Source: a virus (taxonomy: Duplodnaviria; Caudoviricetes). Taken from it: a stretch of DNA of 64,000 bases. The translations under genes and the position numbers were made by a program. The notes below the pieces were generated by a model, which made no database searches, was not told the origin of the DNA, and saw nothing but the letters and a program-made list of their open reading frames with translations. This document shows positions 35,891 through 54,245 of the stretch, piece by piece (position 1 is the stretch's first letter; each line of letters begins with the position of its first letter). The stretch spans positions 35,128-99,127 of the IMG/VR virus record IMGVR_UViG_2920551333_000002; one strand, written 5' to 3'.

Positions 35891-36055
35891 TCACCACACG
35901 CGCACGAGCCGGAACTGCTCCACGTCCTCGGCGTGACCCACCGCGTACTGGCAGCCGCCGCACACCGCGCGGTCGGTCCACGTGCCCAGGTTGATCGCGC
36001 CGCAGTGGTGCAGCCATGCCGCCTTGTCCAGCGCGCTCGTTCTCGACCTGGGCAC
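35891..36055 (-). CDS. Small Cys/His-rich protein (54 aa, not in the ORF track)
   Basis: GTG with AGGAGG RBS; ..WLHHCGAIN...VCGGCQY...RVW. Confidence 0.6.
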   Translation of the reverse strand: MPRSRTSALDKAAWLHHCGAINLGTWTDRAVCGGCQYAVGHAEDVEQFRLVRVW

Positions 36056-36064
36056 CTGAACCTC

Positions 36065-37045
36065 CTACTCGACCGCCGACGCCACCAACTGCGAAGGGTC
36101 CTTCTCCAGTTGGTCCCGAGAATGCAGATAGATCAGAGTCGTCTCGAACGACTCATGGCCCAATGCCTCCTGGATCTCCCGCGGCTTCGCACCCCGCGCC
36201 TCCGCGATTGACGCCCAGGTGTGCCGCAACGTGTGCGGGGTCACCTTCGACTCAATCCCGGCCTGGCCGGCGATCCGCGCCACCAGCTCCCACGCCTTCT
36301 CACGCTTCATCGGCCGACCCGAGCCCGTGGCGAACAGCGGCCCACGCAGGTCCCGCAGCTCCACCTTGGCCCGGCGCGCCCGCTCGGCGAGGTACTGGTC
36401 CAGCGCATACGCCGTCTCCACCGGCAGCTTCCGGTAGTGCGGCTTGCCACCCTTCAGCGTCAGCCGCAACGTCCGATACCCGCGCGAGAACCCCAGGTCC
36501 TCGATGTCCGCGCCCACCGCCTCGGTGATCCGCACCCCGAGCTGGACCAGCATCCGGATCAGCGCCGCGGTGCGCAGCCGCTCCCGGCCGTGGTCCTTGT
36601 CGGCGGCCTCGACCAGGGCGTGCGCCTCGTCTTCCGTCAGCGCCGTCGTCTCGGAGTGACGTCGAGGGATGTTCGGCCGGTCCGCCTCCGCGAACGGGTT
36701 GAACTTGGCGGCGTCGTTCTTGATCAGGTACTTGTACCAGGCCGACACCGCCGACATCCGCTGCGCGATCGTCTTCTGCGACGGCGGATCGCCCCCGGCC
36801 TCGACCGCGGTCTCCACCATCCACCGGGCGTACAGCTCGGCGTGCCGTACCGACATCTCCAGCGGGTCCAGCCCGGTGCGCTGGCAGTAGGTGAACCAGG
36901 GCCGGATCGCCCGCCGGTACGCGTCGCGGGTGTTCGGCGACCGGCGGGTCTCCAGCCACATGTGCGTGATCTCGATGACGAGCGGTGGCAGGTCGAGCGG
37001 AAGCGCGAGGTCGCCGCGCGGCGCCTCGACGAGCTCTTCCGTCAT
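36065..37045 (-). CDS. Tyrosine recombinase, XerC/D-like
   Basis: SPNTRDAY core-binding start; catalytic R (GVRITE), K (KGGK), HTLRH, LGH, TTLIY. Confidence 0.92.
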   Translation of the reverse strand: MTEELVEAPRGDLALPLDLPPLVIEITHMWLETRRSPNTRDAYRRAIRPWFTYCQRTGLDPLEMSVRHAELYARWMVETAVEAGGDPPSQKTIAQRMSAVSAWYKYLIKNDAAKFNPFAEADRPNIPRRHSETTALTEDEAHALVEAADKDHGRERLRTAALIRMLVQLGVRITEAVGADIEDLGFSRGYRTLRLTLKGGKPHYRKLPVETAYALDQYLAERARRAKVELRDLRGPLFATGSGRPMKREKAWELVARIAGQAGIESKVTPHTLRHTWASIAEARGAKPREIQEALGHESFETTLIYLHSRDQLEKDPSQLVASAVE

Positions 37046-37533
37046 CGGCCACCGCCGCCGGAGGTCGCGATGATGATCCCGCAGCCGCCGCAAGAGTAGT
37101 GCCCAGCCCAGCCCGTAGTGGGCTCGCACGGTTCACCCGTCTCGGTGCACGGCTGGAAACCGTCCCGCTCGGGCGTGTTCCCGCACCGGCAGGTCAGCTC
37201 GGCCCAGTCGTTCACGGTGACGCCGGTGCCGTTGAGCGCGCGGCGCATCTCGCGGACGAGCTTGTTGTGCCCTGCCATCTCCAGACCCCAGTGGGGTTCG
37301 ACGCTCCAGTCGCCTTCGGGCCAGTCGCGGACGATGAGCATGGCGTTCGGGGCGATGCGCTGCTTGGACTGCCAGGCTCGCACGCTGTGTGCCTTGCGCG
37401 CGGCCAGCTCACGGTCTTCGCGGTCGAGGGCGTGCCAGCGGAACTGGACGTTGTCGTACTCATCTGTGTAGATGACCGCGTACTCGGAGCGAGCGGCGGC
37501 CGGGTGGAGCCGGTCGCTGCTGGGGTTGCTCAT
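37042..37533 (-). CDS. Hypothetical protein with a C-terminal Cys cluster
   Basis: RBS GAAAGG; CRCGN...CGGCG; coupled to the recombinase gene. Confidence 0.7.
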   Translation of the reverse strand: MSNPSSDRLHPAAARSEYAVIYTDEYDNVQFRWHALDREDRELAARKAHSVRAWQSKQRIAPNAMLIVRDWPEGDWSVEPHWGLEMAGHNKLVREMRRALNGTGVTVNDWAELTCRCGNTPERDGFQPCTETGEPCEPTTGWAGHYSCGGCGIIIATSGGGGR

Positions 37534-37584
37534 GGGAGCACCTTTCGCGAGGGAAGTGGATCACTCGCGACGGTAGCACACGAA

Positions 37585-37612
37585 GGGGAACATAACTTGG
37601 ATTATGTTCCCC
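37585..37612. other. dif-like recombination site (11-6-11)
   Basis: GGGGAACATAA-CTTGGA-TTATGTTCCCC: perfect arms with the CATAA-N6-TTATG core of dif sites, next to the recombinase operon. Confidence 0.8.
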
Positions 37613-37739
37613 TCCCTGTGATCATGAAGCGAGACGAAACAAGAGTCTCCCCGCCGACGATTTACAGCCGAATCTCCCTCGGCCACCGCTGAGCATGCGA
37701 GACCATCAGGAGCCACCAACTCCCCGCGAAAGGCCCACC

Positions 37740-52122: not shown

Positions 52123-52545
52123 CTAGTTGAGGTGGTCGGGGGACAGGGGGGCGTAGGGGTCTTCGACTTCCTCGCCGTGCCAGGCGGTGGAGAGTCGGAC
52201 GAGGACGACCCATGCGGCGTCGTGGACTGTGCGCGCGAGCGGTGCGCCGAGGCGGGCGTTCTCGGACAGGTCCTGATGGACGTCGCGGATCCGCTCCAGG
52301 CGCTCTTGGAGCTCGGCGAGCTGGTGGCGGGCCTGCTCGCGCTCCTCGCGGACGGTGGGCTCGAACGGCACGTACTCGGCGAGCAGCCCGAACGCCCTGC
52401 AGGTCAGGCAAGCGATGCTGCCGCAGACGCCCGCGTGCTGCGCGATCTCCGCAAGGAGGGCGGCGCGGTGCTCGCGCTCGCGCTTGGTGCGGGCGAGCCG
52501 GTCGGCGCGGACTGCTGCGCGCTGGTCGTTGGTCAGACGCATCAC
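52123..52545 (-). CDS. Hypothetical coiled-coil protein
   Basis: Coupled to the upstream gene; CGSIACLTC. Confidence 0.55.
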   Translation of the reverse strand: MMRLTNDQRAAVRADRLARTKREREHRAALLAEIAQHAGVCGSIACLTCRAFGLLAEYVPFEPTVREEREQARHQLAELQERLERIRDVHQDLSENARLGAPLARTVHDAAWVVLVRLSTAWHGEEVEDPYAPLSPDHLN

Positions 52546-54245
52546 TGGCTACCGCCGGGGGTGACCTCGCCCTGGTTGAGCTTCTGCAGGAACGCGGCGT
52601 AGTCGGCGTTGGACGCCTCACCGGCCGGCTTGCGGATGTCGGCCTCGAACGCGACCGACAACTGCTGGTTGGTGCCGCCGAGGTCGCCCCAGACGTTGGA
52701 GATGCGCTGTTGCAGGTCCTTGCGGTAGGCGGCGGCCTGCTGCATGAGCAGCTTGACACCGGTGTCCACCCGCTCGGCGCTGAGGTCCTTCGTCGAGGTC
52801 ACCTCGACGCCCAGATGCTCGACGATCCAGGCGAACCGCGCATCGTCGTTCTTCGCGGCCGATCCCTTGCCTGTGTGGATGGTCACTCCGGCATCTCCGA
52901 ACCACACGCCGAGGTCGCGCAGCGCCTTGGCGGTCGGCTTCGGCTGCTCCTCGTCCTCGACGACCTCCCCGTCCACGATGTCGCCGTCGTCGGCCGCCGC
53001 GCTGTGCTGCTGGCGTGCGGCCTCAAGGAGCGCTTCCGCCCGCTCGGACGCCTTGCGGGGTTCGTCCGCGATCGGGCCTGCGGCGGGCTGGCCGAGCTGG
53101 TCGGCGAACTCGCCAAGCTGCTGCAGGGTGGCGGCCTTCATCGTGGTGCCGGTGCGGTCACGGAACGCGGTGTGGAGCTGGCTCGTCGTGCCTGCCCACG
53201 CGGTCATGATGTGCTGGCGGACCCGATCAGCCTCGGGGTCGCTCGCCGCTGGCGGCGTGTCCGACTCTTGCGAGTGCGGAGGCTCCCCTCCGTGCGGCGC
53301 CTTGGGTGTCTCCGCTTGCGGAGCCTCCGGGGCGGCCTGTCCCTGCGTCGCGTTCTTGTCCTGCTGCGGAGGGAAGGTGGCGACACGGGCCTTGGCCGCG
53401 GCCTCCACTTCCTCCCCTCGGCCTTGCCAGGCAGGGTCGAGCTTGGACGTCCTCCAGATGGCCACGACCGCATCTCGGTCCGTGGCCGCTTCGATCATCG
53501 CGAGGTAGTCGGTCGCAGACCCGGCCTCGATCGCTCGCTGACTCTCACCAGCGCGGGCCAGCTCGGCGCGGCGTCGTGCCTCGCCCGACATCAGCTCGTC
53601 GAACCCGATGCCCTCGATCGTCAGGCCGGGCACCATGTACGTCGTCGGCTTCGGCTGCTTGGTCTTCGGGTCGATAATCGTGCCGTTGCGCTTGGCCAGG
53701 TACAGCCAGGCGTCCACGTACGTTCCCGCGTGGGCCAGGAACTCGGCGGCGTTCGGGAGTTCCGCCGCGGCGTTCTCGCCCTTGCTGTCGAGTCGCCATA
53801 GGCCGAGGCTGGGCACCTTCTTGAGGAAGACGCCGAGTCGCGTGGTGGGCTTGCAGAGGCGGCTCTTGATGTCGCGGTCAGCGCCGCACAGGCACGGGCC
53901 GACGAACGGGGGCTGCATCGTGACGCCTGTGCAGCGGCGGATGCAGACCTTGGCCTCCCATGCCTCCATGTTCTGCGACAACCCGTTGGGCGGGACGATG
54001 ACGGGGATGCGGGTCGCGGTGGTGATGACCTCGAACTGCGGGCCCTCGGGCGACTGCCACGGCTTTGCCTGGCCGCCGTACAGCTCGGCGACACCCCGGA
54101 TCATCTCCTCGGACGGCGAGGTGAACCGGAACGTCTCGATCTTGCTGGGGTACTCCTTGCCGTTCTGGCTGGTCTTCTTGATGCCGAGGCGGATCCGGCC
54201 GTCCTGCCAGTGGCGGCGCTGCAGTACGGAGGGGTCGATGGGCAT
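52542..54245 (-). CDS. Gp3-like (recombination directionality factor-like) protein with C-terminal extension
   Basis: GRIRLG, TFRFTS, LYGG...W, RRC.G...PC.C...CKPTTRL.V.L...G.WRL.S.G.NAA.EL; adjacent to an exonuclease. Confidence 0.75.
   Translation of the reverse strand: MPIDPSVLQRRHWQDGRIRLGIKKTSQNGKEYPSKIETFRFTSPSEEMIRGVAELYGGQAKPWQSPEGPQFEVITTATRIPVIVPPNGLSQNMEAWEAKVCIRRCTGVTMQPPFVGPCLCGADRDIKSRLCKPTTRLGVFLKKVPSLGLWRLDSKGENAAAELPNAAEFLAHAGTYVDAWLYLAKRNGTIIDPKTKQPKPTTYMVPGLTIEGIGFDELMSGEARRRAELARAGESQRAIEAGSATDYLAMIEAATDRDAVVAIWRTSKLDPAWQGRGEEVEAAAKARVATFPPQQDKNATQGQAAPEAPQAETPKAPHGGEPPHSQESDTPPAASDPEADRVRQHIMTAWAGTTSQLHTAFRDRTGTTMKAATLQQLGEFADQLGQPAAGPIADEPRKASERAEALLEAARQQHSAAADDGDIVDGEVVEDEEQPKPTAKALRDLGVWFGDAGVTIHTGKGSAAKNDDARFAWIVEHLGVEVTSTKDLSAERVDTGVKLLMQQAAAYRKDLQQRISNVWGDLGGTNQQLSVAFEADIRKPAGEASNADYAAFLQKLNQGEVTPGGSQ

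Follow-up and report, generated by a model that had tools for sequence, protein, structure and literature searches.

A putative Xer-type recombinase and its linked palindromic site in the middle of an actinophage that integrates through a separate integrase

Introduction

The locus described here raises the question of why a phage that already possesses a normal integrase should carry what looks like a second, Cre-like recombination system where its early and late genes meet. It lies within a stretch of 64,000 nucleotides of phage DNA (hereafter the window; coordinates given without a contig name refer to it) and consists of a gene for a Xer-like tyrosine recombinase and a palindrome with the geometry of a dif site. 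The initial annotation, which was made from the sequence of the window, interpreted this pair as the dimer-resolution system of an extrachromosomal circular phage-plasmid. Here we analyze the site, the enzyme, their homologues and the genome assembly in which the phage is found.

Results

The phage and its host

The window comprises the last 64 kb of contig C11 (99,127 bp, GC 0.68), which belongs to an 11.67-Mb assembly of 580 contigs; the other contigs inspected are mostly near GC 0.72. C11 is a temperate siphophage-like phage of ~99 kb from a Nonomuraea-type actinomycete, with phage genes on both sides of the recombinase, late genes at lower coordinates and early genes at higher coordinates. 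To the left of the palindrome, on the minus strand, are the genes for an endolysin, two large tail proteins, the major head protein, a MuF-like protein, the portal and TerL and, between TerL and the recombinase, those for a ParB_N protein and a D12 (Dam-class) methylase, such that the ParB-like gene adjoins both terS/TerL and the Dam-like methylase gene. To the right are the genes for an HTH_58 protein, an O-like initiator, a J-domain protein, a Gp3-like protein and other early genes. The portal protein is only 44% identical to that of the nearest isolated phage, Streptomyces phage Hiyaa, so that the phage has no close cultured relative, and a megablast search with the recombinase region found no relatives among isolated phages. 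The combination of a portal of the SPP1_portal family with a MuF-like protein suggests headful packaging.

Contig circularity, one of the checks proposed in the initial annotation, was not found: the ends of C11 show no terminal overlap, and both carry remnants of Nextera adaptors. The ends map to adjacent positions in the prophage of a relative (G263, see below), so that C11 corresponds to a single genome length with one break. The break (window 63960-64000/C11:1-40) falls in the early region, ~32 kb from the terminase genes, and could be either an assembly artefact or a physical end.

Elsewhere in the window, a 567-aa protein (52542-54245, minus strand) has an N-terminal Gp3-like domain; Gp3 acts as a directionality factor for serine integrases, that of phiC31 among them. 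Both recombinases identified on C11 are tyrosine recombinases. Outside the window, C11 encodes a 1079-aa C5 cytosine methylase (L001:4038-7277) that is split by Hint and LAGLIDADG domains, i.e. by an intein. The host-like contig C176 (GC 0.72) ends in a 127-bp exact overlap with C11:27063-27189, inside a 629-aa phage gene (C11:26169-28058), and this third branch of the assembly graph could reflect a paralogue elsewhere or a rearranged subpopulation. The same genome also contains a degraded relative of the phage (C541), with a TerL fragment that is 75% identical and no recombinase, and a second cytidylate-synthase/radical-SAM/exonuclease operon (C277), with 82% nucleotide identity over 3.3 kb.

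A perfect 11-6-11 palindrome upstream of an arm-less recombinase

The palindrome is located in a 207-bp intergenic region between divergent genes, 52 bp upstream of orf163, and an operon of two genes, orf163 and then the recombinase, follows it:

37585..37612, no strand assigned: dif-like palindromic core site, arms GGGGAACATAA / TTATGTTCCCC, asymmetric spacer CTTGGA
37042..37533, minus strand: orf163, first gene of the operon; Cys-rich C-terminus, no family match, not kept in relatives
36065..37045, minus strand: 326-aa arm-less Xer-type tyrosine recombinase; R172 K201 H271 R274 H297 Y306
35891..36055, minus strand: 54-aa ORF directly 3' of the recombinase; conserved, no family match

The dif geometry with perfectly symmetric arms that the initial annotation described is present exactly as written: GGGGAACATAA-CTTGGA-TTATGTTCCCC is a perfect 28-bp palindrome with two inverted 11-bp arms, the inner ATAA/TTAT of dif-type targets and a centre within their 6-8 bp range. 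Equivalent palindromes occurred in none of 100 shuffled sequences, and the minimal pattern ATAA-N6-TTAT is found eight times in the whole 11.7-Mb genome. No second copy of the 28-bp site was found in the 11.67-Mb assembly, with up to two mismatches allowed per arm, and neither was an attB-like site for the palindrome. An inversion switch was ruled out because the phage has one site only. In a pattern search of 401 genomes of the family, sites of the GGAAC type were present once per genome in six, in four of these six beside such a recombinase; the same search detected no recurrent empty chromosomal site of this type, which argues against a second attB.

The recombinase ORF extends from 36065 to 37129 (minus strand), and the most likely start codon is the ATG at 37045; it forms an ATGA overlap with the stop codon of orf163 and yields a protein of 326 aa. 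Pfam detects a SAM-like core-binding domain (PF02899) and a Phage_integrase domain (PF00589), with nothing N-terminal to them, and the closest solved structure is that of E. coli XerD (1a0p, full-length alignment, E = 6e-24); XerA and XerH come next. Given that the XerD alignment begins at residue 27, the recombinase lacks an arm-binding N-domain, as was initially claimed, and has the two-domain architecture of Xer proteins. The catalytic R-K-H-R-H/W-Y signature of the Xer family is intact in the form R-K-H-R-H-Y (R172, K201, H271, R274, H297 and Y306), and these residues align with R148, K172, H244, R247, H270 and Y279 of XerD. The hexad does not vary across the phage clade, which indicates selection for catalysis and not for binding alone.

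Among isolated phages, the best tblastn matches of the recombinase are ~32% identical and are annotated as integrases. Homologues of the recombinase carry names from Nonomuraea and other Streptosporangiaceae, and a search of IMG/VR returned a single fragment, from a relative already in the set. The 54-aa ORF downstream of the recombinase is 57-78% identical to its counterparts in two related prophages.

The host has a dif candidate of its own (C396:822-849, on a 3-kb contig), TTGCTTGATAATGGACATTATGTCAAGT, i.e. TTGCTTGATAA-TGGACA-TTATGTCAAGT, which shares the inner TTATGT with the palindrome but differs from it in the outer arm. The host XerD-like gene (C538:39913-40728) adjoins a ParA-like gene, and its product is ~30% identical to the recombinase. 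Action of the host XerCD on the palindrome was rejected on account of these outer arms and of the low identity of the XerD-like protein, and, judging from this comparison, a host Xer protein is unlikely to be the enzyme for the palindrome.

Site and recombinase vary together in homologous loci

A protein search of the 401 family genomes led to the retrieval of 30 loci, to which one further assembly locus (L006) and three plasmid hits were added. At 17 homologous loci, which include prophages, chromosomal islands and actinomycete plasmids and in which the recombinase is 34-100% identical, a palindrome is present 30-2000 bp upstream of the recombinase gene, and wherever this was mapped, i.e. in eight phage-family loci and three plasmids, the palindrome heads the recombinase operon. 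The layout is 11-6-11 with one exception (11-5-11 in L032), 16 of the 17 loci have exactly the same inner ATAA/TTAT, and the spacers vary from locus to locus and are asymmetric in all. The outer halves of the two arms change in step (GGAAC/GTTCC, GTAAC/GTTAC, TGGTC/GACCA, ACCCC/GGGGT, ACACG/CGTGT). When this co-variation was quantified, with the mis-aligned site of the Streptomyces platensis plasmid excluded, seven of the 11 arm positions were altered on both sides (39 cells, compared to 4-11 cells in slid controls and 0 of 500 shuffles), a statistic that is inflated inasmuch as the sites had been picked as palindromes. The rarity of ATAA-N6-TTAT (eight per 11.7 Mb) is evidence that is independent of this selection.

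Within the phage family, TerL remains 75-86% identical, whereas the recombinase falls to 54-63% identity exactly where the arms have changed; thus, site and recombinase behave as a cassette. The ORFs that separate the site from the recombinase are unrelated among the relatives, and the gene for the neighbouring HTH_58 protein is absent from the non-phage loci, so that the recombinase is the sole constant partner of the palindrome. These patterns suggest that the adjacent recombinase very probably has the palindrome as its target.

The plasmid homologues, from Micromonospora, Streptomyces and Pseudonocardia, are 33-39% identical to the recombinase and in some cases reside on circular plasmids; in the three plasmids examined, the palindrome heads the gene or the operon of the recombinase. 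In the 93-kb circular plasmid of S. platensis (L057, NZ_CP108975), which also carries DUF6011 and WYL genes, the recombinase homologue is headed by TAACAGCGATT-ATGGAG-AATCGCTGTTA, with GATT/AATC in place of ATAA/TTAT as the inner arms. In a 32.9-kb contig (L062, G270:C32) that also encodes a ParA-type protein and a GH25 lysozyme, the homologue is headed by ACACACGATAA-TGCACG-TTATCGTGTGG. Both of these elements are better candidates for phage-plasmids than the window.

The linkage of site and recombinase is not universal in the wider family. A well supported sister clade of 15 loci (L014-L028; G200, G162, G044, G167, G291 and others) encodes recombinase homologues that are 46-50% identical to the one studied here and nearly identical among genomes of two genera, and no convincing dif-like palindrome was found within 8 kb on either side of these genes, nor were phage genes found nearby. 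This clade may represent a chromosomal paralogue or an integrase with a split site. A lone site, GGAACATAG-TCCACG-TTATGTTCC, occurs at G114:C44:49610-49633 (L074:9911), without a recombinase homologue within 10 kb; it lies at a step in GC content, with a broken transposase of the Tn3 family, an IS fragment and a serine resolvase as neighbours.

The palindrome overlaps a probable promoter

Alignment of eight phage-family loci revealed a constant order of elements around the palindrome, namely, a CAAGATCGCTAAGAC motif, the palindrome, TGn-TAnnnT, a leader inverted repeat and the ribosome-binding site. In the window, the elements flanking the palindrome are:

37613..37627, minus strand: conserved motif just upstream of the palindrome, CAAGATCGCTAAGAC in relatives and TCATGATCACAGGGA here; contains GATC
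37570..37579, minus strand: extended -10-like element GTGC TACCGT (TGn-TAnnnT), 9 nt after the right arm; inferred promoter
37546..37569, minus strand: leader inverted repeat CGCGAG..CTCGCG, including a second GATC; directly before the ribosome-binding site GAAAGGTG

TAnnnT is kept in all eight aligned relatives, with TGn-TAnnnT placed 7-10 nt past the right arm. A scan for strict sigma-70 consensus promoters and terminators gave no match, so that it is the conservation of the element that argues for a promoter. With a -10-like element just past its right arm, the palindrome would cover the -35 region of the probable operon promoter, an arrangement that suggests autoregulation by the recombinase.

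The two GATC sequences, at 37559-37562 and 37620-37623, flank the palindrome together with the promoter, and their positions are mostly conserved in the relatives. The D12 (Dam-class) methylase is encoded three genes downstream, in the same operon as the recombinase. The cre promoters of phage P1 are methylation-sensitive, and the pair of GATC sequences with a Dam-class methylase is reminiscent of these.

Integration at the 3' end of glnA through a separate integrase

A search beyond the window, which the initial annotation had proposed for an integrase or parA, identified a 457-aa tyrosine integrase with a long N-terminus and a Phage_int_M domain at C11:19500-20873, 15 kb outside the window. 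Immediately 3' of this gene, at C11:20916-20928, is the attP core, TACGACGT(G/C)TGA, and at this point the assembly graph forks: the terminal 131 bp of C170 are identical to C11:20798-20928, and the first 127 bp of C348 are identical to C11:20916-21042. C348 has the structure host-core-phage, with the 3' end of a gene for glutamine synthetase (PF00120, E = 2.7e-139) on its host side, and C170 (phage-core-host) contains the other junction. Integration at the 3' end of glnA restores the last codons of the gene (..YYDV*). Together, the two junctions imply a prophage integrated at the 3' end of glnA via the 457-aa integrase; the initial annotation had named two things that would jointly refute it, integration via another integrase and a site that the adjacent enzyme does not recombine, and the first of these is what the junctions show. 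The assembly contains no contig with an empty attB. The continuity of C11 across attP means that copies of the phage that are free or in tandem were likewise abundant in the sequenced DNA. No tRNA gene, sought as a sign of a tRNA-type attP, is present on C11.

The relatives show the same organization. In the single-contig 10-Mb genome of G263, a colinear 94-kb prophage extends from the homologues of C11:21103 onward to an integrase homologue at the far end, i.e. the gene order is the permutation expected for integration at attP; its recombinase, 72% identical to ours, and an intact palindrome are both in the middle of the prophage. In two other relatives, within contigs of 11.69 Mb and 741 kb, the recombinase is also mid-phage, with phage genes on both sides and the palindrome intact. 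Both here and in G263, recombinase and palindrome are ~50 kb from either prophage end. The claim of a mid-genome recombinase with an intact site, unlike an integrase at a prophage edge, is thus corroborated, and extends to integrated relatives: the properties of an integrase with its attP, namely, a gene at the prophage end and a site split into attL and attR, are not those of this recombinase and palindrome.

The plasmid part of the original proposal finds no support. C11 displays neither of the hallmarks of a phage-plasmid, a partition system and the lack of chromosomal integration; it has a separate integrase with an attP, the junctions in C348 and C170 are present, and its relatives are integrated. 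No ParA-type ATPase (PF13614, PF01656) was detected on C11, and the ParB-like gene, which had been taken as a plasmid sign, belongs to the packaging cluster next to terS/TerL, on which grounds a ParB-based partition system was rejected.

Discussion

A proposed single-recombinase module for the free phage genome

We favour the view that the locus is, with reasonable probability, a self-contained Xer-type module with a single recombinase, comparable to Cre/loxP or XerS/difSL, that monomerises or circularises the free phage genome. The part of the earlier Xer-like interpretation that stands is that the adjacent enzyme is distinct from the integrase and very probably acts on the palindrome; the plasmid setting lacks support. 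In the proposed mechanism, two recombinase monomers would bind the two identical 11-bp arms and strand exchange would take place at the palindrome, with the asymmetric 6-bp spacer making the site directional. As there is one site per genome, the substrate has to be two copies of the phage genome, which might be joined as a dimer or multimer of the excised circle that arises by replication or recombination, or else be the two ends of a virion DNA with terminal redundancy. Recombination would then yield monomeric circles, as in P1 Cre/loxP or in plasmid multimer resolution, and recombinase bound at the -35 region would regulate its own expression.

Several observations weigh against such a module. 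A conserved palindrome at a promoter also fits an operator; dimer resolution is of no obvious use to an integrating phage; if packaging proceeds as in P22 and SPP1, it would proceed in the direction away from the site and keep the site out of the terminal redundancy; and the sister clade (46-50% identity, 15 loci) lacks the palindrome. Strand exchange at the palindrome, autoregulation and the role in monomerisation or cyclisation are all inferred.

The palindrome could instead be purely an operator, i.e. the control site of the long operon that runs leftward from orf163 through the recombinase, methylase, ParB-like and terminase genes to the structural genes, bound by the recombinase as a pure repressor or by another regulator, with no strand exchange. 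Its overlap with the -35 region of the conserved TGn-TAnnnT promoter, between divergent genes, would be in keeping with this role, and so would the divergence of the neighbouring HTH_58 protein, which is about as fast as that of the recombinase. However, the inner arms correspond to the universal Xer-binding sequence, crossover sites have this 11-6-11 geometry, no residue of the catalytic hexad varies, and the same layout of site and recombinase is found on plasmids and islands that have neither the HTH_58 gene nor the phage promoter context; we regard regulation without recombination as quite improbable. A related question is whether the recombinase is a second integrase. Arm-less tyrosine integrases are known in actinophages (Brujita Int), and the palindrome might be a simple attP of this type, for a second chromosomal site or for other hosts, as could be surmised from the integrase annotation of the nearest isolated-phage matches (~32% identity) and from the lone site without a nearby recombinase in G114. 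Yet every integrated relative examined has an intact palindrome at its centre, the assembly that contains the phage has no partner site, the 401 family genomes contain no recurrent empty site, and the lone site of G114 lies in Tn3-family debris, not in a conserved locus, all of which makes a second integrase very improbable.

The same holds for maintenance of the prophage as a circular plasmid, with the module as its dimer-resolution system. The continuity of C11 through attP, with the abundance of free or tandem copies that it entails, the fact that C11 is one full genome length and the presence of the phage's own O-like initiator are what such carriage would predict, but both integration junctions are present without a contig for the empty attB, a classical integrase sits beside attP, ParA is missing and the ParB-like gene is part of the packaging cluster. 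Moreover, the fully mapped relative in G263 is a chromosomal prophage bounded by the integrase, and two others lie inside very large contigs, so that plasmid carriage is highly unlikely. Given the points against each of them, a mere operator, an arm-less integrase and plasmid carriage are all less likely than the Xer-type module. A more far-reaching version of the Xer-type module, which we consider rather unlikely when taken as a whole, is that actinophages of 95-100 kb lead a double life, integrating at glnA via Int/attP and also being able to persist or to amplify as free circles that are kept monomeric by the Xer-like module, and that at least five mutually orthogonal recombinase/site pairs (with arms GGAAC, GTAAC, TGGTC, ACCCC, ACACG and others), native to high-GC actinomycetes, could be used as Cre-like tools.

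Linked modules of the Xer/Cre type are a known kind of system, to which the phage module adds one more; a literature search for precedents in an actinomycete plasmid or phage retrieved only general Xer reviews. If the pair recombines as predicted, it would be part of a natural series of simple recombinase/site pairs with 28-bp sites and co-evolved arm specificities, and such recombinase tools are scarce for the antibiotic-producing high-GC actinomycetes.

Comparison with known systems

The arrangement resembles Cre/loxP of phage P1 (and Cre-type pairs found by mining, e.g. Dre/rox, VCre/VloxP and Vika/vox) in that a single tyrosine recombinase without an arm-binding domain is combined with a site that has symmetric arms and an asymmetric spacer; as in P1, there is one site per phage genome of ~95-100 kb, a few hundred base pairs upstream of the gene, and the proposed role is cyclisation or monomerisation of phage DNA. 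In contrast to loxP, which is a 13-8-13 site, the palindrome is 11-6-11, and the recombinase is Xer-like by sequence and falls outside the Cre subfamily, Cre being absent from the matches to solved structures at E <1e-5. Furthermore, P1 is a plasmid prophage with ParAB, whereas the phage analyzed here integrates via a separate integrase.

In E. coli XerD, the best full-length match, the two domains and the catalytic residues are the same, and the TTATGTT in the right arm of the palindrome is shared without change by the inner XerD arm in the dif site of E. coli (TTATGTTAAAT). The phage module differs from the E. coli system in that it lacks a XerC partner, has two identical arms and is not in a chromosomal setting.

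In XerS/difSL, XerH/difH and the archaeal XerA/dif, a lone Xer-type recombinase and a dif-like site of its own are genetically linked as a module (PMC5357621). The phage module shares with these the single recombinase and the linked site, which, at 28 bp and 11-6-11, is like the dif of XerA, and the best matches of the recombinase among solved structures include XerA and XerH. These systems resolve chromosome dimers at the replication terminus, XerS and XerH in an FtsK-dependent manner, whereas the module described here is borne by a prophage in a host that has a distinct dif candidate and an XerD-like gene of its own; difSL also differs in being 31 bp long, with an 11-bp centre and imperfect arms, compared to the perfectly symmetric arms of the palindrome. 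A further likeness is to the uncharacterised recombinases of the multimer-resolution type on actinomycete plasmids, which are 33-39% identical and, in the three plasmids examined, have a palindrome in the same place, at the head of the gene or operon.
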